This document shows, in pieces, positions 1 through 54,173 of a stretch of DNA of 64,000 nucleotides. The DNA is from Gemmatimonadota bacterium. Its GTDB lineage: Bacteria; Gemmatimonadota; Gemmatimonadetes; Palauibacterales; Palauibacteraceae. Within the stretch, counting starts at the first letter, position 1. Each line of letters opens with the position of its first letter. Where the stretch lies: contig OZ220691.1 of the NCBI GenBank assembly GCA_965116475.1, positions 1,856,001 to 1,920,000 of the forward strand. The letters run 5' to 3'. The notes beneath the pieces are model-generated. The model saw only the letters and a program-made list of their open reading frames with translations, was not told where the DNA came from and ran no database searches. The translations under genes and the position numbers were made by a program.

Positions 1-5
1 CGAAA

Positions 6-1037
6 ATGCGACTGGGCGGACTGTCGAGAGCGCTGAAAGACGCGCACCCGGGATCGAGCGTCGCGCGTCGCGTCCGGCACTTCGACGGCTGGCTCGACCG
101 GGCGGCATCGGAGACGGCGGGCGCGGGCGCTTACGACCACACGGAGACGGTCAGGGACTACTACGAACTCTGCAACGGCTTCATGGTGTACGGCTGGGGC
201 GAATCCCTGCACTTCGCGCCCCTCAGACCCGACGAAACTCTGGAGGAGTCCAAGGTCCGCCACCAGCGGGCGATGATCTCCAGGTTGGAGGTTCAGCGGG
301 GCATGAAGGTGGTCGACGTCGGTTGTGGAATCGGTGGCCCCATGCGCCGGGTCGTCCGCGAGGCGGGCGTCCGGGTCGTGGGAATCAACATCAACGAGGT
401 CCAGCTGGCGGAGGCGAAGAAGTTGAACGCCGAGGCGGGGCTGGAGCACATGGCGGATTTCAGGAAGTGCAGCTTCGCGGACATGAGCGCCATCGAGGCC
501 GACACTTTCGACGGGGGTTACGCCATAGAGTCCACGTGCCATGCGCAGGACAAGCAACGCGCCTTCGCGGAGATCTTCCGCGTGCTGAAGCCGGGCGCGC
601 TGTTCTGGGGTCAGGAAATGTGCCTGACGGACCGATTCGATCCGCGGAACGCCCGGCACCGGACCATCAAGCGGGACCTCATGCGCGGTATCGCGCTGCA
701 CGACATCGCCACGTTCGGGGAAGTGAATCACGCGCTCGAGGGGGCGGGATTCCAGGTCATCGAGGGGAGCGACTGGGACGTCCAGGAGGGACCCTCCACA
801 CCCTGGTATCAACCCATGGAGAGTCGCCACGGGACGCTGGGGAACGCGCTGTACAGGCTTCCCTGGGGCCGCAGGGCGTTCATCGCGGGGGCAAAGTTGG
901 CCGAGCTGCTGCGGCTCTTTCCGCGCGGTTCGGCGGAGGTGGTGCGACTCCTCGATCGAACCGCGGAGGCCTACGTCGCGGGCGGCAGGACGGGCATCTT
1001 CACGCCACTGTACTGTTTTCTGGCGCGCAAACCCTAA
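6..1037 (+). CDS. smt: Sterol C24-methyltransferase (SMT/ERG6 family, SAM-dependent)
   Basis: SMT region I YGWGESLHFA, SAM motif VVDVGCGIGGP, region III YAIESTCHA, C-terminal GIFTPLYCFLARKP. The start is near the window edge and could lie further upstream. Confidence 0.9.
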   Translation: MRLGGLSRALKDAHPGSSVARRVRHFDGWLDRAASETAGAGAYDHTETVRDYYELCNGFMVYGWGESLHFAPLRPDETLEESKVRHQRAMISRLEVQRGMKVVDVGCGIGGPMRRVVREAGVRVVGININEVQLAEAKKLNAEAGLEHMADFRKCSFADMSAIEADTFDGGYAIESTCHAQDKQRAFAEIFRVLKPGALFWGQEMCLTDRFDPRNARHRTIKRDLMRGIALHDIATFGEVNHALEGAGFQVIEGSDWDVQEGPSTPWYQPMESRHGTLGNALYRLPWGRRAFIAGAKLAELLRLFPRGSAEVVRLLDRTAEAYVAGGRTGIFTPLYCFLARKP

Positions 1038-1060: not shown

Positions 1061-2095
1061 CTAGGAGTCCGGGCTTCGAGTCACCAGCGCCGGGTCCGGA
1101 TAGAACTGTCGGCAGTGTCGGCGGTATTTCCCGATCGGGCCGTCCGTCCGGCACAGTCGGGGGGGAGACCGGTAGCGCTTCCGGTCCCATATCACGATGT
1201 CCTGAAGGACGAACCGCCTCTCTTCGCGGAGGATGAAGTAGTTCAGCACCCGGTGGCGCAGCGGCACGGGCAGGAAGCCCAGACCCGATATGAACCGCCC
1301 CGGTTTGCGGATCTCCCGGACCTGATTGACCATCGTCAACTCCACGTATTCGCCGTCGACCGGCGTTGTGAGCACCCACATGCGCGACTTTATGCCGACC
1401 GTTTTTTCGTGAATCTCGACGAAGGAGTAGCCGAGTCCGTGGACGTGCGTGATGACCGAGACTTCGGAGTGAATGTCCACCAGACCCAGGATCCGGCGAA
1501 CGGCCTTGAAGTCGAAGCAGCTCTTCAGGTAGGCGCCATCGACCAGGAAGTCGGTCGGCTCCACGTCGTGGTACCCGTGCGTGTACTCCAGGTGCTCCAC
1601 GTCCACGGAGTTTTCCGTCGTCTCCTGGGGATGCCCTCGAAACCGCAGCTTGCAGGACCGAAGTCCGGTCCACTCCGCTCCGGTGGCAGGTGCATCCGGC
1701 AGGTGCCACTGAGGCGCCCGGCCGCCGCTCCCCCACCAGGCGAAGATCATGCCGAGGATCTCGCGGGTCTCGTAGAGCTTCAGCCTCGCGGCCTTCGGGG
1801 GCGGGGCATTGGGCGTGGCCACGCACTGTCCGGAGGTGTCGAACTCGAACCCGTGGAAGGGACAGACGAGACAGCCGTCGCGCACGAGGCCGCCGGCGGC
1901 CGGTCCCATGTGCGAGCCCAGGTGCGGACAGAAGGCGTCGGCCACGCAGATGCGGCCCTCGTCGTCGGCCCAGGCGACGATTTCCTCGCCCATCCACGTC
2001 TTTTCGATGAGCGTCGCGCGCTCGATGGAGTCGCGGATCCCGATGAAATACCAGCCTTCGGGAAACGGCGGCAGCGCGTCGCTGTGCGTAGTCAT
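1061..2095 (-). CDS. Rieske non-heme iron oxygenase, KshA / Neverland (cholesterol 7-desaturase)-like
   Basis: N-terminal PPFPEGWY, Rieske CPHLG...CPFHG, Fe site ENSVDVEHLEYTH, C-terminal QDIVIW..K...P.LC..DGPI..YRR...QFY typical of steroid Rieske oxygenases. Confidence 0.85.
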   Translation of the reverse strand: MTTHSDALPPFPEGWYFIGIRDSIERATLIEKTWMGEEIVAWADDEGRICVADAFCPHLGSHMGPAAGGLVRDGCLVCPFHGFEFDTSGQCVATPNAPPPKAARLKLYETREILGMIFAWWGSGGRAPQWHLPDAPATGAEWTGLRSCKLRFRGHPQETTENSVDVEHLEYTHGYHDVEPTDFLVDGAYLKSCFDFKAVRRILGLVDIHSEVSVITHVHGLGYSFVEIHEKTVGIKSRMWVLTTPVDGEYVELTMVNQVREIRKPGRFISGLGFLPVPLRHRVLNYFILREERRFVLQDIVIWDRKRYRSPPRLCRTDGPIGKYRRHCRQFYPDPALVTRSPDS

Positions 2096-2146: not shown

Positions 2147-4750
2147 ATGACTCCGGACCATGCGCCCCGCGTTTCGCTTCTCGTGCTCCTGGCCGCGATG
2201 GCCGCCGGCCTGCCGGCGAACGGCGCCGGCCAGGCCGCGGCCGGGGTTCCGCGCTTCGAGATCGCACCGTCGCCGGTCGAGCTCACGGGACCCGTCCGTC
2301 CCGGCGAGTACCTGGGCGTAACCGGACCCCGGTCGGCCTGGCTCGGTCACGAGACCGGAGAGGCGGAGTTGTGGGTCCACCCCCTCAAGGTCGGAAACCG
2401 GTTCCGGCTGGGCTTCTCGACCCCGGCCTACGGAGCGCCGATTCCGGGCGCCGCCGTCGCGCGCACGGTACACGTGCGGCCCGAACTCACGACGATCGCG
2501 TACAGCCACGCGGCGTTCCAGGTGCGCCAGCACATCCTCGCGCCCGCCGAACTCCCCGGTATCCTGGTCCTGCTGGAGGTGGACAGCCCGGAACCGCTCG
2601 AGATCGTCGCCGAGTTCGAGCCCGTGCTGAACTACATGTGGCCGGGTTCGCTCGGGGGGCAGTACGCCTATTGGGACGCGGACCGGCGCGCCTTCGTGCT
2701 GTCCGAAAGCCTGCAGGAGACGAACGCCGTCGTAGGCTCGCCGTGGGCCGTGAACTCCGTCGAGCACCCGGCTCACCAGCTGGGCGAAGCGCCGCGCACC
2801 ATGGTGATCCCGGTCGACCCGGAGCGCGCGCGGCGGGAGTTCATCCCTATCGCGGTAGCGGGCGGAACCGCGCCGCGCGAAGAAGTCTTCGCCAGCTACG
2901 AGCGGTTGATCTCGGAGGCCCGCTCCCTGTACGACGCCAGGCGCGCGTGGGCCGACTCGGTGCTCGCCTCCACCGTCTCCATTGAGTCGCCGGATCCACG
3001 GCTCGACCTCGCACTGGAGTGGGCGAAGATCAACCTGGAGGAGCAGCGCGTCTGCAATCCCGACCTCGGGTGCGGCTTCGTCGCGGGCTGGGGCCTGTCG
3101 CGCAACGGGACCCGCCCCGGCTTCGGGTGGTTCTTCGGCGGCGACGCGGCGCAGACGACCTTCGCCATGGATGCGCTCGGGCAGTGGGAACTGGTGGCGG
3201 AGGAACTCGCATTTCTCGCGAGATACCAGCGCGAAGACGGCAAGATCACGCACGAAATCTCTCAAGCCGCCGCGCGCATCCCGTGGTTCGATGTCTATCC
3301 GTACGCGTACTACCACGCGGACACGACCCCGTACTGGATGGTCGCGCTGTACGAGTACTGGCGGGCGAGCGGCGACGACGACCTGCTGCGGGAGCTGTGG
3401 CCGGCCTACCGGCGCGCGTGGGAGTGGTGTCTCACCGCCGAGACGGATGGCGACGGCATCATCGAGAACACCGTGGGTGGGCTGGCCGCGGTGGAGGTCG
3501 GCGGCCTGGGGGCGGCGCTCCACCAGGATGTCTACCTGGCGGGGATCTGGGTCGCGGCCCTCGAGGGGACGGGGGTGCTCGCCGAGCGGATGGGGGACGG
3601 CGAGATCGCGGATCGGGCACGGGAGATGGCTCCGCGCGCGCGCACAACCCTGAACGATGCGTACTGGCTCGAGGACGCGGGACACCATGCATTCGGGATC
3701 CTCGCCGACGGCGGCACCAACGACAACCTGACCGTGTGGCCCGCCACGGCGGCCGCGTTCGGCCTGTTCGATGGGGGGCGCGCGCGATCCACTCTCGCCC
3801 GCCTCGCGGGCGACCGGATCTCGTCGGACTGGGGCGCCCACATGCTCTCGACGGAGAGCGACCTGTATCATCCGCTCCAGTACAACATGGGCACGGTGTG
3901 GCCCTTCGTGACGGGATACGTGTCGTGGGCCCAGTACCGGTATCGGCGTCCGTGGGCCGGATTCCATCTCATGGATGCGGTGAAGCAGATGACGTTCGAC
4001 TGGAGCCTGGGGCGACACCCGGAGTTGCTGTCCGGCACCTTCTACCAGCCCCTCGACCAGACCGTCCCTCACCAGTTCTTTGCGACTTCGGCCCTGGTGA
4101 CGCCTTTGCTGCGCGGCGTCATCGGCTGGGAGCCCGACGCGGGCCTGGGCCGGGCCCGGCTCGCCCCGCAGCTCCCGCCGGACTGGCCGGAGGCGGCGGT
4201 GCGACGGCTCCGGGCCGGGGCCACCATGACCGACGTCGAGATCCGTCAGCGGTGGACGGTGGAAGGCGGAGAACGGCGGACCACGCTCACGACTACGGGA
4301 CCGGCGCTGACGTTCGCCTTCGTACCCGACGTGCCGGCGGGCGCCCGGAACGTGTCCATCCGCGTGGACGGGGTCGCTGCGGAGATGTCACCCGACGGAA
4401 GCCTCGAAGTCACCGTCGGGGCGACACCGGCCGGCAACCGTGCGGAGATCGTCGTGACATGGGAAGGCGGACTTGCGGTGGCGCCGCCCCGCATCGACCT
4501 CGAAGCCGGCCGGACGAGCCGCGGGTTGCGAATCCTGGACTTCGGCGCCGACGTCGACGGATGGAGTCTCGCCCTGGAGGGGACGGCGGGCCGTACCTAC
4601 GACGTCGCGCTGTTCGGCGTCCCGGTGGTGTCGACGGTCGTGCAGGGCGCCGCCCTCGCCGCGGATCGGGGCGCTGGCGTGATCGAGGTCGAGTTCGCCG
4701 AAGGAGGGGGTCGCGTCTCGGCGACCGTCCGCCTGACGCCGGCCGGATAA
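2147..4750 (+). CDS. Secreted amylo-alpha-1,6-glucosidase / glycogen debranching-like (alpha/alpha)6 glycoside hydrolase
   Basis: Signal peptide after ATG 2147; GWFFGGD, QREDGKITHE, YYHADTTP, YNMGTVWPF motifs. It is the C-terminal part of ORF 323..4750. Confidence 0.75.
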   Translation: MTPDHAPRVSLLVLLAAMAAGLPANGAGQAAAGVPRFEIAPSPVELTGPVRPGEYLGVTGPRSAWLGHETGEAELWVHPLKVGNRFRLGFSTPAYGAPIPGAAVARTVHVRPELTTIAYSHAAFQVRQHILAPAELPGILVLLEVDSPEPLEIVAEFEPVLNYMWPGSLGGQYAYWDADRRAFVLSESLQETNAVVGSPWAVNSVEHPAHQLGEAPRTMVIPVDPERARREFIPIAVAGGTAPREEVFASYERLISEARSLYDARRAWADSVLASTVSIESPDPRLDLALEWAKINLEEQRVCNPDLGCGFVAGWGLSRNGTRPGFGWFFGGDAAQTTFAMDALGQWELVAEELAFLARYQREDGKITHEISQAAARIPWFDVYPYAYYHADTTPYWMVALYEYWRASGDDDLLRELWPAYRRAWEWCLTAETDGDGIIENTVGGLAAVEVGGLGAALHQDVYLAGIWVAALEGTGVLAERMGDGEIADRAREMAPRARTTLNDAYWLEDAGHHAFGILADGGTNDNLTVWPATAAAFGLFDGGRARSTLARLAGDRISSDWGAHMLSTESDLYHPLQYNMGTVWPFVTGYVSWAQYRYRRPWAGFHLMDAVKQMTFDWSLGRHPELLSGTFYQPLDQTVPHQFFATSALVTPLLRGVIGWEPDAGLGRARLAPQLPPDWPEAAVRRLRAGATMTDVEIRQRWTVEGGERRTTLTTTGPALTFAFVPDVPAGARNVSIRVDGVAAEMSPDGSLEVTVGATPAGNRAEIVVTWEGGLAVAPPRIDLEAGRTSRGLRILDFGADVDGWSLALEGTAGRTYDVALFGVPVVSTVVQGAALAADRGAGVIEVEFAEGGGRVSATVRLTPAG

Positions 4751-4804
4751 CGGGGGCGGCCCGAGGCGTCAGAAGGCTCGGGGCGTCAGTGGGCCCCCGG
4801 AGCG

Positions 4805-5959
4805 TCAGTCGGACAGCACTCGGGTGAGCGTGTCCGCGACCTCGTCGATCTGTGTCTCGGTGATCACGAGGGGCGGCAGCAGCCGGATGACCGTGGTGCC
4901 GGCGGGCAGCGCGAGGGTGCCCCGCTCGGCGAGGGCTTCCAGGTAGGGGCGGCAGCGCTCGCGGAGTTCGACGCCGATCATGAGGCCGACCTGCCGCACG
5001 GCGCGCACGCGGGCCGACCCGTGACGGGCGAAGCGCTCGCTGAAGCGGGCGCCCAGCGCCTCGGCGCGCTCGTCGAGCCGCTCGTCCCGCATGTAGCGGA
5101 TCGCGGCCAGGGCGGCGGCGGAGGCGAGCGGGTTGCCGCCGAAGGTCGTGCCGTGCCGCCCGGGGGGCGGCTGCAGCCCTTCCTGCGCGAGGACCGCCCC
5201 CAGCGGCACGCCGCCCGCGATCGCCTTGGCGAGGCAGAGCACGTCCGGCGCGACGCCGTAGCGATCGCAGGCGAACATGCGGCCGGTGCGGCAGAAGCCC
5301 GTCTGGATCTCGTCGAACACCAGCACCGCACCGGCCTCGTCGCAGATGCGCCGCGCCGCCCGCAGATAGTCCCGGCTGGCCGGCCGCACGCCTCCCTCGC
5401 CCTGCACCGGCTCGACGATCACCGCCGCCGTGTCTTCGCTTACGGCCGCGCGCAGTTTCTCGATGTGGTTGAAGGGCACGAACGAGAACCCCGGCACGAG
5501 CGGCTCGAACGGCTCGCGATACTCCTTCTTGTGCGTCGCGCTCAGCGCGCCCAGCGTCCGCCCGTGGAAGCCGCGCATGGCGGATACCACGCCCGCCCGT
5601 CCCGTCGCGAGCCGCGCGAACTTGATCGCCGCCTCCACCGCCTCCGCCCCGGAGTTGCAGAGGAAGGCGCGCGTGAGTCCGGCCGGCGCGATCGAAACGA
5701 GTTCGGCCAGCAGCCGCGCGCGGACGTCGTTAAAAAAAATCCCCGGACAGGACACGAGCACGCGCGCCTGCTCCGCCACCGCCTCGGCCACGGCCGGGTT
5801 GGCGTGGCCGACGCTCGCCACGCCGATGCCGCCCACGCAGTCGATGTAGCGGCGACCCTCGTCGTCCCACACGCACGCGCCCTCGCCCCGGACGACCGCG
5901 ATGTCCCGCTTTGGAAAAACCTCGAGCGCGTACGCTCGTTCCAGCTCGCGGGCGTTCAT
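4805..5959 (-). CDS. lysJ: [LysW]-aminoadipate semialdehyde / acetylornithine aminotransferase (class III PLP)
   Basis: [48 protein letters not shown]; last gene of the lysW operon. Confidence 0.88.
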
Positions 5960-6768
5960 CCGATCACCGTGCCGCGTCCGGCCAGCGCCTCCGAGACCGG
6001 CCGTTCGATGCGCCCGTCCGCGATCACGACGCGGGTCGAGCCGGACTCCACCAGTCGGCGCAGTGCGAGCAGCTTGCGCTTCATGCGCCCCGTGACCTCG
6101 CTCTCCCGACGGGCAAGCTCCGCACGCGAAAGACGCGGGACGACCGACGCCGGATCGTCCGGGTCCTCCAGGAAACCGGGCGCCTCGATCAGCTGGATCA
6201 CGCGTTCCGCGCGCAGCTCCGCGCTGAGCAGGGTCACGACGTCATCGTTCTCCGAGTTGATCGCCACATTGCGTTCGTCGATCAGGGGAACGGTCACGAC
6301 CGGCGTGTAGCCGCCGCCGAGGAGCAGCCCCAGCAGCTCGCGGTTCACCTCCGCCGGCTTCCCGGACAGATCGCGCTTGATCAGCGTCTTGCCGCCCTCC
6401 CGCACGCGGATGCCCCTGTTGCGACGGCCGCGCACGAGCGCCCCGTCGAGCCCCGTGAGCCCGACCGCGTTCACGCCGTGACCCTGTAGCAGTTCGACGA
6501 TGCGCTTGTTGCGCACGCCCGCGTAGGCCATGAGCATCACGTCGATCAGGTCGCGGTCGGACTGCACGCTCTCGTGTCCGGACACCGACGTGAGGACGCG
6601 TTTCTCGACCCCGAGCCGGCGGGCCAGGGAGTCGCGCAGCGCGTTCGCGCCGTGCACGATGACGAACGGTCCGGCCAAGCCCGCCAGGTCGCGGACGATC
6701 CCGTCCAGGTTGATGGATGCTCCGCCGCCGATCTTGACGATGAGCAGCCCGCCGGACTCTCCAGGCAT
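5956..6768 (-). CDS. lysZ: [LysW]-aminoadipate/glutamate kinase
   Basis: Amino-acid kinase VKIGG, IVHG, GLTGLDG, G.MKRK motifs; stop overlaps the lysJ start. Confidence 0.88.
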   Translation of the reverse strand: MPGESGGLLIVKIGGGASINLDGIVRDLAGLAGPFVIVHGANALRDSLARRLGVEKRVLTSVSGHESVQSDRDLIDVMLMAYAGVRNKRIVELLQGHGVNAVGLTGLDGALVRGRRNRGIRVREGGKTLIKRDLSGKPAEVNRELLGLLLGGGYTPVVTVPLIDERNVAINSENDDVVTLLSAELRAERVIQLIEAPGFLEDPDDPASVVPRLSRAELARRESEVTGRMKRKLLALRRLVESGSTRVVIADGRIERPVSEALAGRGTVIG

Positions 6769-6771
6769 CGG

Positions 6772-7431
6772 TCAGAACGTCCCGATCGCGCCGTTCGCGA
6801 CCGGCGTCCACGTTCGCCCCCCGTCCGACTCCGAATGCGAGTCCGGGTAGGGCGTCGAGCACAGGATCCGCACGCCGTCCCCCCGGGAGACATGCATCCG
6901 GAAGTAGTCCGGGTCCTCGCTGAACCGGGTTGCGAAGTGGACCTCCCCCGCCGCGTCGGCGACGACCAGGTTCATCGCCCGCACGTAACGGGTGCGCTTC
7001 TCGATCGCGTCGAGTCCCCGCTCCAGCGCAAGGCCCATGTCCCCGTCGGCGAAACGCTTCACGAAGTTGAACACCTTCTCCGCGCCGATCCGACCCCGCT
7101 CCTTGATGCGGACACCGTGCAACTCTCCGTTGAAGATGAAGGCGCGTTGCCCGTCGAAGAACGGCATGTTGTTCTCGACCCGTATCCCTTCCCCACGATA
7201 CGCGCTCCGCGCATGGGCGAGCAGCAGGGTCGTGCGACCGGTCGGCGCCGAGGCGTCCTCCCACACCGGCGAGATGTCACGGTGGAGGCGCCATCCATCG
7301 GCATCGATCCAGGCACACCCCCACCCGTCGCCCTGGTACTCGCGGCTCTCCCGGGCGAGTTGCGCAAAGGCGGCGAGGTGCGGCGCGATGTCGAAGGGCT
7401 CAACGCCGCGGACGCAGAGGATCCGGCACAC
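6772..7431 (-). CDS. Class II glutamine amidotransferase-like Ntn hydrolase (YafJ/EgtC/Dug3 type)
   Basis: GTG start then Cys2 (MCRIL), DGWG, LAHARSA, NNMPF, FNGE motifs; lies inside the lys operon. Confidence 0.82.
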   Translation of the reverse strand: MCRILCVRGVEPFDIAPHLAAFAQLARESREYQGDGWGCAWIDADGWRLHRDISPVWEDASAPTGRTTLLLAHARSAYRGEGIRVENNMPFFDGQRAFIFNGELHGVRIKERGRIGAEKVFNFVKRFADGDMGLALERGLDAIEKRTRYVRAMNLVVADAAGEVHFATRFSEDPDYFRMHVSRGDGVRILCSTPYPDSHSESDGGRTWTPVANGAIGTF

Positions 7432-7453
7432 GATTCGGCTCGTTGCGTCGCGG

Positions 7454-8476
7454 TCAGGCCGGATGCAGCCCGGGGAACTCGAGCCCCCGCGACTCCGGCA
7501 ACCCGTGCATCACGTTGAATGCCTGCACCGCCTGTCCCGCCGCTCCCTTCATGAGATTGTCGATCGCGCTCAGAACCACGACCCGGTTCGAGAGCGGATC
7601 GCGCTCGAACCCCACGTCACAGTAGTTCGCGCCCGCCAGGAGGTTGGGGTCGGGATAGCGGTGGATGCCGCTCCGCTCCTTGACGATGCGCACGAACGGC
7701 TCGTCGGCGTACGCGCCGCGGTAGATCTTCCACAGCGCTTTCTCGTCCAGCTCCCGGTTCAGGAATACATGGCACGTGGCGAGGACGCCGCGCACCATCT
7801 CGACCGCCGTCGCGGAGAAATGCACATCGTCGCCGAGCACCGTCCGGATCTCGGCGGCGTGCCGGTGGCCCGTCGGCCGATACGACCGCATGGCGCCGCT
7901 GCGCTCCGGGTGGTGGCTGCCATCGCTGGCGCGGTTGCCGGCCTCGCTCGAGCCCACCTTCACCTCGATCACCGCCGAGTCCGCGACCCCCTCCCGGTAC
8001 AGCGGGAGCAGTCCCAGGATGGAGGCCGTCGCGTTGCAGCCCGCGCATGCGACGAGGTCCGCGCCCGCCAGCGCCTCGCGGTTCACCTCCGCGATCCCGT
8101 ACACGAACGATCCCAGCAGCTCCGGCCGCGGGTGCGGCCGGCCGTAGAAGCGCTCGTAGTCCGCGCCGTCCGGGAGCCGGAAATCCGCTCCCAGGTCGAC
8201 GATCCGGCGCGCCAGCGACCGGAACTCGTCGATGCGGCGCGACGACTCCCCGTGCGGGAGACAGAGGAAGAGCACGTCGCACTCCGACAGCTCGTCGAGC
8301 GCGCAGAAGCGCAGCCGCGTGACGCCGCGCAGGTTCGGGTGGACCCGCTGCGCGAACCGCCCCGCGAAGCGTTCCGAGGTGATCTGCCGCACTTCGACGT
8401 CGGGATGGCCGAGCAGAAGCCTCAGCAGCTCCCCGCCGGCGTAGCCCGACCCGCCCGCAATCGACGCGCGGATCAT
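7454..8476 (-). CDS. lysY: [LysW]-aminoadipyl/glutamyl-phosphate reductase (ArgC family)
   Basis: GGSGYAG Rossmann motif, GCNATA catalytic Cys, [18 protein letters not shown]. Confidence 0.9.
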
Positions 8477-9333
8477 CGGTCCGCGGCCCGTTCCGAACGC
8501 TGCTCCGGCGAGACCGCGTACGACACGATCCTCTCCGGAATGTTCACGCCCGTCGCCTCGATGCTGTTCCTGAACTCCATCGTGTAGTTCACTTCGTTCA
8601 CGAGCAGTCCGCCCTCGCTCTCGAACAGGTCCACGGCGACCACGCCCCCGCCCACGGCCTCCGCCGCCTTCAGGGACAGCTCCCCGATCTCGCTCGTCAC
8701 GGGACAGTTCGACGCCGTTCCGCCGCGCGCCGTGTTCGTGATCCAGTGCGCGGAAGACCGGTAGATGGCCGCCACGCAGTCCTCGCCCACGACGAACGCG
8801 CGGATGTCGCGCCCGCCCTTCTCCACGTACTTCTGCACGAAGAAGATCGAGTGATGATAGCTGCCCAGGATCGCCTTGTGTTCGAGGACAGTCTCCGCCG
8901 CGTGCCGGTCGTTGATCCTCGACAGCAGCCGGCCCCAGGAGCCGACGGCGGGCTTGAGGACGACGGGATAGCCGAGTTCCTCGATCGCCTCGAGCGCGGA
9001 GGCCTCGGTGAACGCGACCCTGGCTTCAGGCTGCGGCACGCCGCATTCCCGAAGCGACGCCGCGGTGAGGATCTTGTCCCCGCAGCGACGCGACACTTCG
9101 TAGCGGTTGACGCAATCGAGGCCAGCCCCCTCGAACAGCCGCAGGGCGTGCATGGCGCGCGAATGGTTGATGCAGCGCTCGAGAACCACGTCGACGTCCG
9201 GGACCGTCCGGAAGTCGAACGAGAGCCTGCGGTCGTCCAGAAACACCAGCTCCACATCGCTGCGGCCGCGCAACTCCGCGATCAGCAGCTTCTCGTCCTT
9301 GCGGATGAGGGAATGAAGAAAACCGACCCTCAT
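8473..9333 (-). CDS. lysX: LysW-amino acid ligase (RimK family ATP-grasp)
   Basis: [36 protein letters not shown] 9333 overlaps the lysW stop (ATGA). Confidence 0.92.
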
Positions 9334-9494
9334 TCGCCCCAATCCTCCTCGGCGTCCGGCGCCTCACCGAGAGTGACAGGGTTGAGCGCAAGGATCTCCA
9401 GTTCGACGCCGCACTCCTCGCATTCGAGCAACTCGCCCTCGACGGGGTCGTCGGAGATCATCGGCTCCGCGTCGCATACGGGACATACCGGCAT
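9330..9494 (-). CDS. lysW: Amino-group carrier protein LysW (54 aa, missed by the ORF track)
   Basis: Manual translation [54 protein letters not shown]: two CxxC, acidic, C-terminal EDWGE; GGAGG 9 nt upstream of the ATG. Confidence 0.95.
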
Positions 9495-9558
9495 GCCGTC
9501 CATCCTCCGTTGGGGTTCTTCGCACAGGGTTCTTCGTACGGAGAGAACCAGAATACCG

Positions 9559-10263
9559 TCAACCGGCCGCGGGGTTCCGGAACGGAAGCCACAGCGCCAG
9601 GAAGAGCCCGATCGCGACGGGCTCGAGGAGAAGGATGTACCAGGGCCAGGCCGGGAAGAAGTCGAGGATCGTAGGGCCCAGCGGCTTCTCGATCACGTAC
9701 AGGTAGTTCGACCCCACGAGCCGGTTGATCGGGTAGACCACGGCGGCGTACAGGTTCAGCAGGCCGAGGGCAATCCACGGATCGCGCGCCGTTGGCCGAT
9801 AGCCTTCCACGACCGCTGCCCACACGCCGGCGATGACGACGGTCCCGTGCGAGCCCAGCGACTCGAAGAAGGTGGTGTGCACGACGCCGAACTCGGTATT
9901 CGGGGTCAGGACGGCCTGCATCGCCCCCGCAATCCCGAAGAAGTACATGAGGCGGAGGACCCGGGGATGGCGAGTCCACAGCCCGTAGATCGTCACCCAC
10001 GCCATGAGGTTGCACAGGTGCAGCGGGATGTCGTTCTGTACCGACCAGAGCCCGGTCGCGGCCCTCCACAGGTGCCTCGACAGGAGGAAGACGAGAATCG
10101 TGGCGCCCATGGCCACCCGCAGGCGGCGTCGGCCGCGCTCGCCGGCGACGAGGCCGGCCCGGATCACGCAGACGCCGATCACCAGGAGGACGCCGATCGT
10201 CGCCAGATGCACCGGGCCGAAGAGATCGAACGGCAGCCGTTCCGTGCTGAAGAACCGATCCAT
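9559..10263 (-). CDS. YwaF / TIGR02206 (TMEM164-like) integral membrane protein
   Basis: Multiple TM helices; PLHLCN, ALTP-like, H, NYLY..KP and PWY motifs. Confidence 0.75.
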   Translation of the reverse strand: MDRFFSTERLPFDLFGPVHLATIGVLLVIGVCVIRAGLVAGERGRRRLRVAMGATILVFLLSRHLWRAATGLWSVQNDIPLHLCNLMAWVTIYGLWTRHPRVLRLMYFFGIAGAMQAVLTPNTEFGVVHTTFFESLGSHGTVVIAGVWAAVVEGYRPTARDPWIALGLLNLYAAVVYPINRLVGSNYLYVIEKPLGPTILDFFPAWPWYILLLEPVAIGLFLALWLPFRNPAAG

Positions 10264-10307
10264 GTCAGCCCGTCACCCGCCGCCGTCGACCCGGGTGCGG
10301 CACCGGA

Positions 10308-12221
10308 TCAGCTCCCCGCGTCCGCGAGCGACGAGGTCGGTATCTCCGGCCCCTCGATTCGCTTCCCCTCCCGCAGCGTCACGTACGCCTCCATGGCGTA
10401 ATACGCCGGCAGGCCCAGCGCGGCCAGCCGGTCGGCGGTGTCCCGGTTCCGCTCGACGACCCGCTGCCAGAACTCGCGCGGATCCGGGCCGGGGAAGGGA
10501 GCGAGGTCCTTCTGCGACTCGTGTCGGAAGATCGCCTGGACCTTGCCGCGCAGTTCGCCTTCGGAGAGCGGCACGAGGACGGTCGCTTCGTCCAGGTCCC
10601 ACTCCTGCCACGCGCCGCGGTAGAGCCACAGCCAGGGCGGGTCGCCGCTGTAGCTGGCGAGCGCCGCATCGACCGTCTCAAGGCACATGCGGTGCGTGCC
10701 GTGCGGATCGGACAGGTCCCCCGCGGCGAACACGATCGTCGGCCGCACCTCCTCCAGCAGCTGCGCGACGATCTCCACATCCTCGGACGTGATCGGGTTC
10801 TTTTTCACCGCCCCCGTCTGATAGAACGGCTGGTTCAGAAAACGGGCGCGGTCGGCGGCCAGCCCGAGCGACTCGATCGCCGCCGTGGCCTCGGTCTCGC
10901 GGATGATCCGCTTGAGTTGCTGAACCACGCCGGGATCGACGTCCCCCGGCTCCTTGCGGGCGAGACGGTCTTCGAGCGACCGCAGCACCTCCTCGAGGTT
11001 CGAGGCATCGCCAAGGTCGATGATGCCCGCCGCTCGCCTCAGGAAGTCCAGGTACCGGCGCACCTCGTGGTCGAAGACGGCGATGTTCCCGGACGTCTGG
11101 TACGCCACGGTGATGCGGTTGCCGTTCTCGACCAGCTTGCGCAGCAGTCCGCCCATCGAGATCACGTCGTCGTCCGGGTGAGGCGAAAAGACGACGATGT
11201 CCTGACCCCGCGGCAGCCGGCTCTTCCCCCGGATCTTGGAGATGAGCGCGTTGAAGACCTGTCCGTTGAGCGGCTCGGCCGACCCGTGCCGGGAGGTGAG
11301 CGGGGCGAGGTGGTTCGCGCGATAGTCGTCGGTCGCGAGGTGCAGAATCGACTTGTCGGTGCGTTCGCTCAGCCAGATGACGGCCGCCGTCTCGCGCTCC
11401 GCCGTCCACTCCACATCGCCCACGAGCCACGGCGTGCGGACGCGGGTGAGGTCGGAAGCGGCGGCCGGATCGAGATAGACCGTCGCATGGGCGTGCTGCT
11501 GGAGGAAGGTCGCGGCGACGTCGGCATGGACCTCCCCCTCGACGGCTCGGCGCACGATCTCGGCCTTGTGTTCTCCGGTCGCGAGCAGGACGACCTCCCG
11601 CGCTTCGAGGATCGTGGCCACGCCCATCGTGATCGCCTGCGGCGGCACGTTCTCCTCGCCGAAGAAATCCGACGCGGCATCGCTCCGGGTGACGGTGTCC
11701 AGGTAGAGCCGCCGGGTGCGCGAGTCGCGCTCGGACCCGGGCTCGTTGAAGCCGATGTGGCCGCTGCGCCCGATCCCGAGGATCTGGAAGTCGATCCCGC
11801 CCGCCTCCCGGATTCGGCGCTCGTACTCGACGCAGTGTGCCTCGACCTCCGCTTCCGGCACGTCGCCGCGCGGGATGTGACAGTGCTCCGGAGCGATGTT
11901 CACATGGTCGAACAGGTGCTCCCGCATGTAGCGGCGATAGCTGTGGAGGCTGTCGGGCCGCATCGGGAAGTACTCATCGAGGTTGAAGGCGACCGCGTTG
12001 GAAAAGTCGAGTCCTTCGTCGCGGTGCAGACGGATGAGTTCCCGATAGACGCCGACGGGCGTGGCGCCGGTCGCGAGACCGAGAACGGCGGGGCGTCCGT
12101 TCTCGGCCCGCTTCCGCAGGAGCGCCGCGATCCGGCCGGCGACCTCGGCGGCGATGCTGTCGTGGTCCGGCATGACCCGGACGGGCACGCGTTCCCTCCG
12201 TGCGTGCGCGGCGTCGCTCAT
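10308..12221 (-). CDS. nagB: Glucosamine-6-phosphate deaminase fused to a C-terminal PIG-L/LmbE-like domain
   Basis: LGLATGATP, FNLDEY, GIGRSGHIGFNEPG; C-terminal SPHPDDD and DPHGTH motifs. Confidence 0.9.
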   Translation of the reverse strand: MSDAAHARRERVPVRVMPDHDSIAAEVAGRIAALLRKRAENGRPAVLGLATGATPVGVYRELIRLHRDEGLDFSNAVAFNLDEYFPMRPDSLHSYRRYMREHLFDHVNIAPEHCHIPRGDVPEAEVEAHCVEYERRIREAGGIDFQILGIGRSGHIGFNEPGSERDSRTRRLYLDTVTRSDAASDFFGEENVPPQAITMGVATILEAREVVLLATGEHKAEIVRRAVEGEVHADVAATFLQQHAHATVYLDPAAASDLTRVRTPWLVGDVEWTAERETAAVIWLSERTDKSILHLATDDYRANHLAPLTSRHGSAEPLNGQVFNALISKIRGKSRLPRGQDIVVFSPHPDDDVISMGGLLRKLVENGNRITVAYQTSGNIAVFDHEVRRYLDFLRRAAGIIDLGDASNLEEVLRSLEDRLARKEPGDVDPGVVQQLKRIIRETEATAAIESLGLAADRARFLNQPFYQTGAVKKNPITSEDVEIVAQLLEEVRPTIVFAAGDLSDPHGTHRMCLETVDAALASYSGDPPWLWLYRGAWQEWDLDEATVLVPLSEGELRGKVQAIFRHESQKDLAPFPGPDPREFWQRVVERNRDTADRLAALGLPAYYAMEAYVTLREGKRIEGPEIPTSSLADAGS

Positions 12222-12251
12222 CCGCTCATCCGCCCGTCGCGGGGCAAGACA

Positions 12252-15089
12252 CTAGGGGACCTTCTGCTCCGGGAGCAGCACGAAGCGGGCGTACCGGTCG
12301 GTGCGCAGGTACCGGACGGCGGCCTCCCGCACCTGCTCCGCGGTCCAGCGTTCGATCCACTCGTAGCTCGGGATCTCGTTCAGGTCCCGGCCAGCCCGTT
12401 CGAAGGAGCCCAGTTGCGACAGCCAATACCGGTTTTCCTGCAGGCTCGTCTCCTTCGTGCGGCGCTGCGTCTCGCGGACCTTGTCGACGGTCTCCGCGTC
12501 CGGTCCCTCCGCCTTCAGGCGTTCGATCTCCTCGAACACGACGTCGGACAACTCCTGCGCGCGTTCCGGATCCGAGCCGAAGGAGATGGAGAAGCGGTAC
12601 TCCTCATCGGGCCGGTAGCTCAGCGACCCGCCGACGCCGACGCCGTAGGTGCCGCCGAGGTCTTCGCGCAGCACCTCCCGGAGGCGGATGTCCAGGACGT
12701 CGGCCATGGCCGAGATCGCGTTCGACTCCTCCAGCGAGTATTCCGCTTCGCCCGCGAAGATGATCTGCGTGCGGCTCTGCGGCTCCAGACCCTTGTAGAC
12801 CGTCGTTTCGATCGTCCCCGAAGGCGGATCGATCCCGAGATCGCGCCACTCCTCGACCCGCCCGAGATTCGGGAGCGCCCCGAGGTACTGCTCCACGAGC
12901 GGCCGGATCGTCGCGAGATCGAAGGCCCCGGTGAAGTAGAACGTGAAGTCGCTCGCGTCCGCGAAACGGTCGCGGTAGAGGTCGTAGGCCGCATCGAGGT
13001 CGGCCGCTTCGAGCATGCTCGCGAGTTGCGACAGCCGCAGGACCCTCGGATGCCCCTGGGACATGGTGACCGAGATCGTGTCGGCGAACACGAAGTTGGG
13101 ATTCGCGTCCGCGTTCGCGAGCATCGCCATCTGCTGGGCCTTGAGGGCCTCGAACATCGTCTCGTCCCTGCGTGGCGCGGAGAAGTACAGGTAGATGAGC
13201 TGGAACGCCGTTTCCACATCCTGTGGAGACGCCGATCCTCCCAGCCCCTCGGCGAGCGACCCCACCGAAGGCGACACCCGCACCGCCTTTCCGGCCAGCT
13301 TCTTCCCCAGCGCGGTCTGATCGAAGTCGCCGACGCCGGACTGGCTCACCACGTTCAGCGCGAACGAGACCTTCCGGAAGAGATCGTCGGATATGATCGA
13401 CGTGCCGCCGGGACTGGTCGCGGAGAAGAGGATCTCATCGTCCTTGAAGTCCGTGGGCTTGAGGACGACCCGGACGCCGTTCTCGAGGGTCCATATCGTG
13501 ACGCCCACGTCGTCGAGGACTTCTTCGCTCGCGACGGGCATTCCGTCGGGAACGACGGGAAGGAGCGGGACGTCGGCCGCCTCGTCCTCGTAGGCCTCGA
13601 CCTCCCGCCCGCCCACGGCGGCGAACACGCTCAGCAGGTCCTCCTCCGACGGAGGCTCCAGGCCCTCCTTCGTGGGCGCGCTGGCGAGGACGACGCGTCC
13701 CTGCTCCGCCAGCCACGCCTGCGCGATGCCGTTCGTCTCCTCGAGCGTGATCCCGGGGAGGAAGGCGTCCGCCAGCTCCATCTGCGTCTCGATATCCGGG
13801 TAGGCGCTCCCCTGGAGAAATACCTGGATGTAGCGGTTCGCGAGCGCGACGGACTCCTGGTTCTCGCGCTCGGCCAGGCGGCGCTCGTATCCCCGCCGCG
13901 TGTTGGTCTTCTCGCGATCCAGCTCGCTGGCCGTGAACCCGTTCTGAACCACGCGCTCGGCTTCGGTGAGGAGCGCTTCGAGCCCGCGTTCGATCCCGCC
14001 CTCGGCGACGACCGCGACGAGCTGGTAGGCATCCACGCCGCGCGAGAACTGCCCCTGGCCGGAAAAGCTGAACATGAACGGCGGGTCGGCCTGGAGCCGG
14101 AGTTCGTTCAGGCGCGCGTTCAGCATGCCGGAGTAGAGCCCTTCGACCAGGCCGCGGCGGAAGTCGCCGATCGTACCGCGGGGGGCGGGCGGCTGCTTGT
14201 ACAGCACGCCGACCTGACTACCCTGCGCTTCGGGGTCCGTCGCGATCGTGACGAGCGGCGGATGGTCGATCGGGACTTCCGCCGCGATCCGGGGACGCGG
14301 CTCGGCGGGCCCGGTCAGCCCCCCGAACCGTGCGCGAATCGTCGCTTCGATATCGGCGCCGTCGAAATCGCCGACGGCGATGATCGCCATCAGATCCGGC
14401 CGGTACCAGTCTTCGTAAAAGTCGCGCAGCCGCGCGGCGGGGGCCGTCTCGAGGATCTCCGTCTTCCCGATCGGGAGACGCTCCGCATACAGCGACCCCT
14501 GGAAGAGGACCGGGAACTGCTGGTCCTGTATTCGCGCTCCGGCCCCTCGCCGTCCGCGCCATTCCTCGATGACGACGCCGCGCTCCTTGTCGACCTCCTC
14601 CGGGTCGAAACGCACGCCCTGCGCCCAGTCCACAAGGATCTGGAACGCGGTCGCGAGCGTCTCCGGGTCGTCCATCGGCACCTGGAGCATGTAGACCGTC
14701 TCATCGAAGCTCGTGTAGGCGTTGACGTCGGGGCCGAACTGCATCCCGATCGACTCGAGATAGTCGACGAGCGCCTGCTTCTCGAAGTTCTCCGTGCCGT
14801 TGAACGCCATGTGCTCGACGAAATGCGCCAGCCCGAGCTGGTCCTCGTCCTCGAGGATGGAGCCCGCGTTCACGACGAGGCGCAGCTCCGCCCGGTTCTC
14901 CGGCTGATCGTTCTCGCGCACGAAGTAGCGCAGGCCGTTGTCCAGGGTTCCGGTGATGACGGCCGGGTCGGGTGGAATCGGATCCGTCGCGGCCGGGGTC
15001 TGCCCCGCCGCTCCGGGAGCGGAGAGGGAGGAGAAAAGGGCAATGGCGGTCGTTACGAAAGCGACGCCGGGCAAGCGGGACATCTTCAT
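12252..15089 (-). CDS. Secreted M16 (PqqL-like) zinc endopeptidase
   Basis: Signal peptide; inverted zinc motif HFVEH, NAYTSFDET; four-domain insulinase length (945 aa). Confidence 0.9.
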   Translation of the reverse strand: MKMSRLPGVAFVTTAIALFSSLSAPGAAGQTPAATDPIPPDPAVITGTLDNGLRYFVRENDQPENRAELRLVVNAGSILEDEDQLGLAHFVEHMAFNGTENFEKQALVDYLESIGMQFGPDVNAYTSFDETVYMLQVPMDDPETLATAFQILVDWAQGVRFDPEEVDKERGVVIEEWRGRRGAGARIQDQQFPVLFQGSLYAERLPIGKTEILETAPAARLRDFYEDWYRPDLMAIIAVGDFDGADIEATIRARFGGLTGPAEPRPRIAAEVPIDHPPLVTIATDPEAQGSQVGVLYKQPPAPRGTIGDFRRGLVEGLYSGMLNARLNELRLQADPPFMFSFSGQGQFSRGVDAYQLVAVVAEGGIERGLEALLTEAERVVQNGFTASELDREKTNTRRGYERRLAERENQESVALANRYIQVFLQGSAYPDIETQMELADAFLPGITLEETNGIAQAWLAEQGRVVLASAPTKEGLEPPSEEDLLSVFAAVGGREVEAYEDEAADVPLLPVVPDGMPVASEEVLDDVGVTIWTLENGVRVVLKPTDFKDDEILFSATSPGGTSIISDDLFRKVSFALNVVSQSGVGDFDQTALGKKLAGKAVRVSPSVGSLAEGLGGSASPQDVETAFQLIYLYFSAPRRDETMFEALKAQQMAMLANADANPNFVFADTISVTMSQGHPRVLRLSQLASMLEAADLDAAYDLYRDRFADASDFTFYFTGAFDLATIRPLVEQYLGALPNLGRVEEWRDLGIDPPSGTIETTVYKGLEPQSRTQIIFAGEAEYSLEESNAISAMADVLDIRLREVLREDLGGTYGVGVGGSLSYRPDEEYRFSISFGSDPERAQELSDVVFEEIERLKAEGPDAETVDKVRETQRRTKETSLQENRYWLSQLGSFERAGRDLNEIPSYEWIERWTAEQVREAAVRYLRTDRYARFVLLPEQKVP

Positions 15090-48978: not shown

Positions 48979-49269
48979 TCAGCGGCCCGCATCCTTCCCG
49001 GTGTCGGCGGATTCCCCCGTCCGGTGCCGCACGTAGCTCTCCAATACGCGGTTCATCCGCGTCTGGTAGCCCTTACCTGGTGCCTTGAAGTACGCCAGCA
49101 CGGAGCGCTTCACGCGCATGGTGATCTGGTCGGTCAGATCCGGTTCGACGAGTTCCGCCCGCTCCCAGAACCCCTCGTCCAGTTCTGCGATGTCGCTGAA
49201 GTCGATGCTCTCGTCCTTCACCGCCGCGATCTGCTCGGGCGTGAGGGGCCTATCGTAGCGTCCGCTCAT
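48979..49269 (-). CDS. brnA: BrnA antitoxin
   Basis: IDFSDI.EL...FW, ITMR....VL.YFK..GKGYQTRMN.VL. Confidence 0.88.
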   Translation of the reverse strand: MSGRYDRPLTPEQIAAVKDESIDFSDIAELDEGFWERAELVEPDLTDQITMRVKRSVLAYFKAPGKGYQTRMNRVLESYVRHRTGESADTGKDAGR

Positions 49270-49528
49270 TGTAGACTCTCCTTTCCTTCCGCGACGCCGG
49301 GCGGGCGGAGATCAGACGGATACGCCCGCGGCGCTCGGTGTGGGTCACCACGATCAGCGCTCCGGGCTCGACCCGGCCTATGCTGATGCGCCGGTCCTCG
49401 CCGTAGTCCCGGCGACGGTCCGGTGAAGTTGCGACGGTCCCCTCGAAGATGAGCTTGGCGGTCTCGAACCCGATGCCGTGCTTGCGGATGTTCGTCCGGT
49501 TCTTGGCCTCGTCCCACTCGAATTCCAT
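49250..49528 (-). CDS. brnT: BrnT ribonuclease toxin
   Basis: MEFEWDEAKN..N.RKHGI.FE, YGEDR, RLISAR.A...ER..Y; overlaps brnA. Confidence 0.9.
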   Translation of the reverse strand: MEFEWDEAKNRTNIRKHGIGFETAKLIFEGTVATSPDRRRDYGEDRRISIGRVEPGALIVVTHTERRGRIRLISARPASRKERRVYNERTLR

Positions 49529-49549
49529 CGATCCATCATACATATGAAT

Positions 49550-49559
49550 TGTAGTTACA
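49550..49559. promoter_or_regulatory. TGTA-GT-TACA inverted repeat, candidate brnTA operator
   Basis: AT-rich patch about 20-30 bp upstream of the brnT ATG; autoregulation is inferred. Confidence 0.35.
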
Positions 49560-49568
49560 GCAACGCGT

Positions 49569-49760
49569 GCCGTCGCGGTCCCCGTCGGCTCCTCGATGAT
49601 CTTCGTCATGGGCGCGGGCTGGCTCTCGGTCGTCACCGATCTCGGCCCCGGCGACCTCTTCGCCGTCGGCGTGCAGCCGTTCCTGGTGGGCGCCGTCGTG
49701 AAGGCGGCCATCCGCTTCGCGGCGACGCGCCGGATCACGGCGAGGCGTCGGCGGCACTGA
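49569..49760 (+). pseudogene. bioY: C-terminal fragment of a BioY-like biotin transporter
   Basis: Manual translation AVAVPVGSSMIFVMGAGWLSVVTDLGPGDLFAVGVQPFLVGAVVKAAIRF... resembles the BioY C-terminus (G..WL...GV.PF..G...K); in-frame TGA at 49545 removes the N-terminal part. Confidence 0.65.
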
Positions 49761-49893
49761 TCCGCGTCTCGCCACCCCAGGATCGGTTGCGAAACCGTTC
49801 AGGATTGTATTCGTACGCCTGATTCGGTATGCCTGTTCGGCAGATTTGCGGCCGGACAGCCCCTCGGTAACGGACGTCACCACGCGGCGAAGC

Positions 49894-52728: not shown

Positions 52729-53091
52729 ATGCCCACGCTGATCGAAGCCCCGGCCGTCATCGAGGCGGCCGGGAACCGACCCAAGCGGATCGAGGAATAC
52801 GCCGGCCGCATCCGGACGGGACAGGCTGACGTCAGCGTAGCGCGCATGGTGGCGCCGTCCGGCTGGGTCGAGCCGGGTCAGCGCCCCGAGTTCGAGGAGA
52901 TCACCGTCGTGCTGAAGGGATCGCTGCATGTAGAGCACGCGGGCGGCGTCCTGGAGGTAGAGGCCGGCCAGGCGGTTGTGACGCAAGCGGGCGAATGGGT
53001 CCGCTACAGCACGCCGGGCCCCGAGGGAGCCGAGTACATCGCCATCTGTCTCCCCGCCTTCTCTCCCGACACCGTCCACCGCGACCCCTAG
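52729..53091 (+). CDS. Cupin domain protein
   Basis: EPGQRPEFEE..VVLKG, GEWVRYSTP, C.PAFSP..VHR. Confidence 0.8.
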   Translation: MPTLIEAPAVIEAAGNRPKRIEEYAGRIRTGQADVSVARMVAPSGWVEPGQRPEFEEITVVLKGSLHVEHAGGVLEVEAGQAVVTQAGEWVRYSTPGPEGAEYIAICLPAFSPDTVHRDP

Positions 53092-53939: not shown

Positions 53940-54173
53940 ATCTCCCGTCGCGGTGTCGCCCGCGCGCAGTGGCGGGCGTCGGGGCTCCCGAAGCTAGAGC
54001 CACCTTGCGGGCTGCTCAACGCGGGCAAGCGAAGTGACGCCCATTGCCGGCTCGCCGTCTGGATACCACGATCAACCCCCGTTGGATCGTTCGCTCGAAT
54101 CGCGGCCTGACCGCCTCTGGGTCGGGTCGCTCACAACGCTGGACACGCGCCGGCCGACGGCGCCGCACCGGAG

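Follow-up and report, generated by a model that had tools for sequence, protein, structure and literature searches.

In pathways built on the amino-group carrier protein LysW, the ligase LysX attaches the substrate to the gamma-carboxyl of the C-terminal glutamate of the carrier, as stated in the available portions of the sources (10.1101/2021.12.28.474397; PMC10433800), and LysK releases lysine or ornithine from the gamma-carboxyl of this same residue, again according to the portions at hand (10.1101/2021.12.28.474397; PMC12998189). In the ergothioneine pathway, EgtC takes the glutamyl residue off a gamma-glutamyl intermediate, breaking the amide bond that links the gamma-carboxyl of this residue to an amino acid's alpha-amine (PMC9103826). 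Considered here is a LysW operon from a Gemmatimonadota bacterium (contig OZ220691.1), located in a stretch of 64 kb with a G+C content of about 69%, hereafter called the window, i.e., the whole stretch of DNA that was analysed. The six-gene set lies on the minus strand and encodes the carrier and all canonical enzymes of the pathway but LysK (four of five), together with a cysteine hydrolase of 219 amino acids belonging to the N-terminal nucleophile (Ntn) class. This Ntn protein is proposed, with a probability of roughly 0.55, to be a non-orthologous replacement of LysK which hydrolyses the gamma-amide on the last residue of LysW.

Gene organisation of the operon

The genes follow one another in the order lysW-lysX-lysY-Ntn gene-lysZ-lysJ and are tightly packed (Table 1), with lysW and lysX overlapping in an ATGA as read from the sequence, lysX/lysY and lysZ/lysJ each overlapping by 4 nucleotides, and the Ntn gene set 22 nucleotides from lysY and 3 nucleotides from lysZ. 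The start of lysX is probably the ATG at 9333 because the lysW stop overlaps there. Against sequences of the Protein Data Bank (PDB), the LysX protein matches 3vpd_A (E=1.5e-91), deposited as "Ribosomal protein S6 modification protein," and 1uc8_A (E=8.5e-85), a "lysine biosynthesis enzyme." It also holds the GSWGR motif, the definition of which is given, along with that of the EDWGE motif of LysW, in the available part of PMC10433800.

An earlier note, made from the DNA letters of the window, had described this gene order and tight packing and had stated that no M20-family lysK was present in the operon or the window. On the first point, open reading frames (ORFs), curated models, overlaps and gaps all concur. 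On the second, the window has 258 stop-to-stop ORFs of 120 amino acids or more, of which 136 were scanned with Pfam without a match to PF01546 (E≤1e-5), the other 122, with a third-position G+C of at most 0.68, being set aside; when a Deinococcus LysK was compared with the entire window by six-frame tblastn, the best E was 1.9. This query, from a plasmid locus (L082), scores 420 bits with NF003367 and 329 bits with TIGR01902.

Family, fold and catalytic residues of the Ntn protein

The Ntn protein passes the GATase_4 model PF13230 marginally and over residues 1-113 only (Table 1), scores 41.3 bits with the EgtC equivalog TIGR03442, below its cut-off of 218.65, and has itself no match to PF01546 or to LysK models. 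Among PDB sequences, the top match is 3mdn, a class-II amidotransferase-domain protein (5e-8), followed by EgtC 4zfj (9e-7). An AlphaFold2 model built with 77 diverse relatives reached a predicted local distance difference test (pLDDT) score of 95.5 and a predicted template modelling (pTM) score of 0.91. The structures nearest to it by Foldseek are EgtC chains (E about 1e-12, template modelling score 0.73-0.77, 21-22% identity) and, after these, the glutaminase domains of GlmS, GFAT and PurF; among the 75 PDB matches at E≤0.001, those listed are all EgtC, GlmS/GFAT, PurF, 3mdn or 1te5. As modelled, the protein is a stand-alone Cys-Ntn hydrolase of the class-II glutamine amidotransferase type, with a four-layer alpha-beta-beta-alpha fold unrelated to that of M20 enzymes. 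The kinship with EgtC advanced in the earlier note holds, EgtC being the nearest solved fold and the catalytic residues being intact; judged from the scores, the protein is not an EgtC orthologue.

Matches among 1.84 billion representatives numbered 360 at E≤1e-3, 195 at E≤1e-10 and 59 at E≤1e-30, most of them 200-250 amino acids long and aligning from residue 1, and a 90%-clustered set held 1667 matches, the named ones being "hypothetical protein" entries from metagenome-assembled genomes (MAGs) of Gemmatimonadota. On this count of homologues, the Ntn protein falls in a compact, unnamed family. The hallmarks of class-II glutaminases, from work on PurF and GlmS, are a Cys after the initiator Met, a His-x-Arg and an Asn-Gly, providing the nucleophile, the alpha-carboxylate binder and the oxyanion hole, respectively. 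In the 77 diverse members, C2, R3, W57, R75, N101, G113 and G116 are invariant, position 119 is always K or R (77/77), and H73 (75/77) and G102 (75/77) are nearly invariant, with the correspondence of R75, N101 and G102 to PurF/GlmS residues taken from motif position only. All 80 close copies keep C2, R3, W57, H73, R75, N101, G102, G113, G116 and K119, are free of internal stops and begin with M/V-C-R (48 from ATG, 32 from GTG), where the Cys is predicted to become the N-terminal nucleophile upon removal of the initiator Met. In classical class-II enzymes, the free alpha-amine of the glutamine substrate is bound by an Asp. Between positions 105 and 135 of the 77 diverse members, none of the acidic residues is fully conserved (D131 being present in 24), which would fit a glutamyl substrate with its alpha-amine blocked in a peptide bond.

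Conservation of the operon in related genomes

A scan for relatives of the Ntn protein, with one genome per species and a 22-sequence alignment as query, returned at least 588, of which the best 80 were taken with 10-kb flanks. By record title, these 80 loci comprise (i) 55 from Gemmatimonadota (Palauibacter, Longimicrobiales and others), (ii) 15 from Acidobacteriota, including Vicinamibacteria and Marinacidobacterium, and (iii) 10 from gammaproteobacterial MAGs. The Ntn gene comes directly after lysY in 79 of them and after lysX in the last one, the full order lysW-X-Y-Ntn-Z-J recurs in 70/80, and the proteins of the window were found again in most loci, namely LysW in 77, LysX in 78, LysY in 79, and LysZ and LysJ in 73 each. 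The arrangement is thus not due to chance, the same order being found in 70 of 80 related loci, and the Ntn gene is integral to a variant of the LysW operon without LysK in cis. The Ntn gene still stands with lysW, lysX and lysY in eight gammaproteobacterial loci that have no lysZ and lysJ next to it; lysZ and lysJ are missing from the fetched stretch in L068, L069, L072, L075, L076, L079 and L080 and lie about 8 kb downstream in L064. In the closest named relative (L001), the Ntn protein is 88% identical to that of the window and the other five pathway proteins 93-98%. Two local departures were seen, i.e., an unrelated ORF of 173 amino acids between lysX and lysY in a gammaproteobacterial locus (L064:7791-8312) and an apparently frameshifted lysW in an acidobacterial one (L053:7961-8254).

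The six-gene operon is common to Gemmatimonadota, Acidobacteriota and gammaproteobacterial MAGs at about 60-80% protein identity, and this sharing of the whole operon by three phyla suggests that it has moved between phyla as a unit. One natural, full-length fusion with LysZ was found, P0270, a protein of 481 amino acids with a single member sequence, on a 3.2-Mb contig, in which an Ntn part (residues 1-208, 50% identical to the protein of the window) is joined by a short linker to a LysZ part (residues 216-474, 64% identity). It is the only one counted as a fusion because the other candidates, i.e., four of five longer Ntn matches and P0159, extend over just 46-68% of the Ntn protein and resemble chimeras of adjacent genes created at gene calling. 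Pfam scans of the window and related loci revealed no egt-type domains, the neighbours being lysW, lysX, lysY, lysZ and lysJ. Two plasmid matches to the Ntn protein, from Streptomyces and Embleya (tblastn E of 4e-4 and 8e-4), have no LysW context and were set aside as generic GATase_4 members, the Streptomyces copy adjoining a glutamate ABC transporter.

Mutual exclusion with LysK

As in the window, LysK was not found in the 80 loci with their flanks, either by tblastn (best E=1.8) or by PF01546 (E≤1e-6), which matched none of 268 cluster representatives of 1267 locus ORFs (at least 200 amino acids, third-position G+C at least 0.08 over the locus mean). Conversely, a search of plasmid records with LysX, which was blind to the Ntn gene, gave eight loci. 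Seven of them, namely a Deinococcus plasmid and six Streptomyces clusters, contain LysW and a protein homologous to LysK, which is 38-100% identical to that of Deinococcus (E≤1.6e-51), the eighth being an isolated lysX of Thermomicrobium, and none of the eight contains an Ntn homologue. LysK thus occurs in 0/81 clusters with the Ntn gene against 7/8 others, for which Fisher's test gives p=1.2e-9, a value overstating independence because the clusters are related and those used for comparison are few and for the most part from secondary metabolism. The anti-correlation anticipated in the earlier note is supported, and no cluster keeping both genes occurs among the 89.

LysW carriers ending in glutamine

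Out of the 77 lysW genes of the related loci, 70 encode a carrier ending in EEDWGE, one is frameshifted and six encode EEDWGQ (Table 1), these six all being from Gammaproteobacteria. In the latter, the last codon is CAG followed by TGA and the neighbouring Gly codon varies synonymously, and given these synonymous differences near the last codon, they are independent sequences rather than one repeated error. A database search with one of the Gln-ended carriers (E≤1e-5) gave 70 relatives, of which 28 end in EDWGQ, 36 in EDWGE and 3 in EDWAE, and 3 are truncated; the Gln-ended ones lie within P0275-P0338. As identity among the Gln-ended ones drops to about 59-67%, they form a stable, diversified lineage. 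The string EDWGQ was found in no paper of the literature searched.

Since LysX needs a C-terminal Glu, a Gln-ended LysW is of no use until its gamma-amide is hydrolysed, a reaction which is the defining one of the enzyme class to which the Ntn protein belongs. All six of the Gln-ended carriers that could be placed adjoin an Ntn gene; this pairing is no independent test because the loci were found via the Ntn gene.

Proposed reaction and competing explanations

In the proposed reaction, Met1 would be removed and the free Cys would attack the gamma-carbonyl of the C-terminal glutamyl residue of LysW, which would carry the end product, lysine or ornithine, as an amide formed with the alpha-amino group of that product. 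The amino acid would leave and a LysW-gamma-glutamyl thioester would form on the enzyme, its hydrolysis by water regenerating LysW-Glu for the next cycle. The oxyanion hole would consist of Asn101 and Gly102, and the terminal residue of LysW would be bound at its free alpha-carboxylate by Arg75. With a Gln-ended carrier, the same reaction would expel NH3 and yield a usable LysW-Glu. A bolder version, which we advance tentatively and would sooner doubt than believe, is that LysK has been fully displaced by this thioester-forming hydrolase and that Gln-ended LysW evolved as an inert pro-carrier deamidated before loading, one and the same enzyme both activating the carrier and releasing the product every cycle.

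A complex prediction for residues 2-219 of the Ntn protein with LysW gave a score of 0.54 (runs at 0.53, 0.58 and 0.54, agreeing in at least 96% of contacts, with a partner pLDDT of at least 80) against 0.02 for the best of three controls. The mark applied was reached by 116/157 solved complexes and 2/215 mismatched pairs, and passing scores of at most 0.60 were those of just 18/157 solved complexes plus both passing mismatches; the prediction as such lends weak support to a complex. A match in charge between the two proteins was also considered and found uninformative, LysW being acidic and the Ntn protein having an isoelectric point of 6.39, with a family median of 8.34 and 50/77 members above 7.

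Several points weigh against LysK replacement. Regarding gene context, the loci compared are the closest 80 (at least 56% identity) of at least 588 relatives, members at about 30% identity lying outside this set, and the set used for comparison is of only eight plasmid loci, mostly Streptomyces secondary-metabolite clusters. Of the six genes, the Ntn gene has evolved fastest, its median identity to the window being 64% against 70-81% for the others. D131 occurs in 79/80 close relatives, which makes the loss of an alpha-amine anchor not clear-cut, and the score of the complex with LysW falls in the weak band. As for the source genome, the absence of LysK is that observed over the 64-kb window, and in some organisms with LysK, presumably including Thermus, lysK is not beside lysW.

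Related genomes bear on this last point. KEGG's entry for lysK is K05831. In the rows consulted of supplement file 10 of PMC10469786, covering 52 genomes of Palauibacterales, i.e., the order of the closest named relatives of the window, 21 genomes have orthologues of the LysW system (K05826-K05830), and K05831 and TIGR01902 have 0 occurrences. In these rows, PF13230 is present in 20/21 LysW-system genomes against 4/31 others. Both results favour LysK replacement. On the unfavourable side, the same rows show K01438 ("acetylornithine deacetylase") in 19/21 LysW-system genomes against 7/31, K01439 in 20/21 against 7/31, TIGR01910 in 19/21 against 5/31 and PF01546 in 52/52 (PMC10469786). As far as these rows go, the association of ArgE/DapE-family M20 genes with the LysW system is about as strong as that of PF13230. 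Moreover, argB, argJ and argD are nearly absent from the 52 genomes in the table (PMC10469786), so that an "ArgE" without an acetylated substrate could be a divergent LysK. The search for lysK or argE across a full genome that the earlier note had called for, transposed here to a published table of related genomes, has two sides, LysK-specific models being absent from the 52 genomes and K01438 paralogues being present in 19 of the 21 with a LysW system. The idea of the earlier note that the Ntn protein replaces LysK likewise stands in part: an intact Cys-Ntn hydrolase with an EgtC-like fold, fixed in the operon in three phyla and exclusive with LysK, speaks for it, as do the Ntn-LysZ fusion and the Gln-ended carriers, and the ArgE/DapE paralogues of related genomes speak against it.

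The best-surviving alternative, which we regard as unlikely, is built on those very paralogues: an M20 enzyme encoded elsewhere would release the product and the Ntn protein would only mature or repair the carrier, i.e., deamidate Gln-ended or accidentally amidated LysW or strip misloaded amino acids, much like the editing thioesterases of acyl-carrier systems. The K01438, K01439 and TIGR01910 paralogues in 19-20 of 21 LysW-system genomes would supply the M20 enzyme, Gln-ended LysW means that deamidation is needed in at least one lineage, and a gene evolving faster than the core enzymes would suit such a role. Nevertheless, maturation is superfluous for the 70/77 carriers with a C-terminal Glu, next to which a catalytically intact Ntn gene is kept in every case, and the clusters encoding LysK (7/8) do without any such accessory gene. 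The M20 domain is found in all 52 genomes of the table regardless of LysW and no M20 protein there fits LysK-specific models. Furthermore, LysW-gamma-Lys would presumably also be a substrate for an enzyme that hydrolyses LysW-gamma-NH2 or LysW-gamma-Glu.

Improbable in our view is a hydrolase of small molecules, i.e., of glutamine or gamma-glutamyl compounds, that has nothing to do with the carrier, such as a glutaminase giving glutamate, which donates the amino group in the LysJ reaction and might be loaded by LysX; its co-transcription with the pathway genes would be a metabolic convenience. The nearest solved relatives do have free substrates, either glutamine or a gamma-glutamyl compound, and GATase_4 is functionally mixed, with distant members in unrelated contexts. 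On the contrary, the position of the gene in the operon is fixed in 80/80 loci and three phyla, even with lysZ and lysJ elsewhere, the gene is strictly exclusive with LysK, an Ntn-LysZ fusion exists, the family has no shared acidic residue for a free alpha-amine, and the Gln-ended carriers would be left unexplained. A last reading, in which the Ntn protein would be the glutaminase half of an amidotransferase and pass its ammonia on to a pathway partner, can draw on the fold and active-site residues of class-II amidotransferases and is nonetheless very hard to credit, the protein being a stand-alone domain of 219 amino acids without a synthase domain, the only fusion found being with the LysZ kinase, the nearest fold, EgtC, being a plain hydrolase and no pathway step needing ammonia, as LysJ gives the amino group by transamination.

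Lysine or ornithine as the product

The proposed replacement of LysK by the Ntn protein leaves the nature of the released amino acid to be considered, for which the earlier note implied lysine. The LysX of the window shows F-I-T-NS at the positions numbered 182/192/203/258-259 in the available portion of PMC12998189, where this five-position signature is that of aminoadipate-specific LysX. In favour of lysine, all 81 LysX sequences are of this aminoadipate type (F-I-T-NS in 64, F-V-T-NS in 17), and a Gemmatimonadota MAG has, 3 kb upstream of its lysW, a gene of the homocitrate-synthase type (HMGL-like and HCS_D2; L065:665-1870), which is the only gene of the aminoadipate branch seen near any of the 80 operons. 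In favour of ornithine, the rows consulted of the 52-genome table have no K01655, K16792, K16793 or K05824, i.e., homocitrate synthase, homoaconitase and homoisocitrate dehydrogenase, and, in the part of the source at hand, arginine genes of the acetyl route are nearly absent and ornithine carbamoyltransferase is present in most genomes (PMC10469786). Ornithine formation via the LysW-glutamate route is described in a sister order (PMC11651109). According to the same rows, LysW-positive genomes hold a second K00052 copy (PMC10469786). Lysine as the product thus finds support in the LysX signature and is disfavoured by the 52-genome table, and the pathway may yield either lysine or ornithine, a choice that leaves the proposed chemistry unchanged.

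Other features of the window and related loci

Table 1. Genes of the LysW operon in the window and Gln-ended lysW genes of related loci
Feature	Position	Strand	Product	Model matches
lysW	9330..9503	-	Amino-group carrier protein, 57 amino acids, zinc-ribbon, C-terminal EDWGE	PF21344 49.4 bits (cut-off 27); TIGR01206 50.4 bits, just below cut-off 53.2
lysX	8473..9342 (ORF from TTG 9342)	-	ATP-grasp ligase loading the substrate onto LysW	TIGR02144 335 bits (above 275.6)
lysY	7454..8476	-	ArgC-type semialdehyde-forming reductase	TIGR01850 377 bits (above 233.6); PF22698; PF01118
Ntn gene	6772..7431	-	Stand-alone class-II-GATase-type Cys-Ntn hydrolase, 219 amino acids, GTG start, M-C-R-I-L; proposed LysW gamma-amide hydrolase	PF13230 25.0 bits (cut-off 23)
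lysZ	5956..6768	-	[LysW]-aminoadipate/glutamate kinase	NF010659 241.4 bits (above 223); PF00696
lysJ	4805..5959	-	Class-III aminotransferase acting on LysW-bound semialdehyde	TIGR00707 436.8 bits (above 410); NF042418 481 bits, below cut-off 700; PF00202
Gln-ended lysW	L064:6308-6469; L068:7631-7792; L069:7804-7980; L072:8843-9004; L075:7815-7991; L079:7564-7725			

An Rfam search over 4000-13000 (E≤1) had no match, lysine riboswitch included, and a promoter and terminator scan over 4400-10500 gave no promoter-like site and a single terminator-like site, located in lysJ and under the shuffle mean. Upstream of lysW (9559-15089, minus strand) are genes for a TMEM164-like membrane acyltransferase, a NagB-PIG-L fusion and an M16 peptidase, all kept in Palauibacter loci (L001-L012); the fusion, made of a glucosamine-6-phosphate deaminase-like part and a de-N-acetylase, stands directly before lysW in many Longimicrobiales loci.

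At the edge of the window, a sterol-methyltransferase-like gene with Sterol_MT_C and methyltransferase domains (3-1037, plus strand) adjoins a gene for a Rieske/KshA-type oxygenase (1061-2095, minus strand), and P450, GPP34-like and steroid 5-alpha-reductase-type domains are also present in related loci; from their domains, the first two may be bacterial sterol-modifying genes. Elsewhere in the window are an ORF with a BrnT-type toxin domain, as in type II toxin-antitoxin systems (49253-49798, minus strand), an N6/N4 DNA methylase gene (53088-53993, minus strand) and many dispersed genes for amidohydrolases and peptidases (S9, S15, M48, beta-lactamase-fold).

Significance and comparison with known systems

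No paper linking this class of Ntn enzymes to LysW clusters was found in a search made without most subscription journals; the one paper mentioning both, PMC3249071, does so in unrelated table rows. If LysK replacement is true, an old amino-acid pathway has a second, unrelated enzyme for its last step, relying on a covalent cysteine instead of a metallopeptidase, which would be a clear non-orthologous gene displacement and would assign a role to the Ntn family, whose named database entries read "hypothetical protein." It would also close the gap behind automated calls of lysine or arginine auxotrophy in Gemmatimonadota, Acidobacteriota and some Gammaproteobacteria. In the part of PMC10469786 at hand, lysine is among the commonest putative auxotrophies of Palauibacterales. 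Many of the genomes found here are named as sponge- or marine-associated MAGs. Likewise, Gln-ended LysW would be the first case of such a carrier that must be activated by an enzyme, and the Ntn enzyme could serve as a metal-free tool for product release in engineered carrier-protein pathways.

Respective to known systems, the Ntn operon is a variant of the LysW system rather than a new kind of system. Like the Ntn protein, EgtC (4zfj, 4zfk, 4zfl), its best structural match, is a stand-alone protein of about 220-235 amino acids starting with Met-Cys, and the bond it cleaves is of the type found in LysW-gamma-Lys or LysW-gamma-Orn, as proposed for the Ntn protein. EgtC differs by its low identity (21-22%) and by its substrate, a free gamma-glutamyl compound, whereas the proposed one is the C-terminus of the LysW protein with its alpha-amine engaged in a peptide bond. 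The glutaminase domains of PurF and GlmS, as well as 3mdn and 1te5, have the same fold and keep the N-terminal Cys, His-x-Arg and Asn-Gly; compared with PurF/GlmS, the Ntn protein has no synthase domain, has an invariant G113-x-x-G116-[AS]-x-[KR]119 of its own and does not keep the usual Asp stretch family-wide. As to LysK (M20; NF003367, TIGR01902), it is also encoded inside LysW clusters and catalyses the same reaction as that proposed for the Ntn protein, from which it differs in having no kinship in sequence (tblastn E>1) or fold and in being metal-dependent, as opposed to the proposed Cys thioester; of the two, only the Cys enzyme would be expected to accept a plain carboxamide, i.e., a Gln-ended LysW. 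Finally, the canonical clusters of the Deinococcus sp. NW-56 plasmid (L082) and Streptomyces (L085-L090) resemble the window in their EDWGE-ended LysW, their LysX with GSWGR and F-I/V-T-NS, and their LysY, LysZ and LysJ, but hold an M20 hydrolase and no Ntn gene, whereas the window, with no M20 gene, has the Ntn gene between lysY and lysZ.

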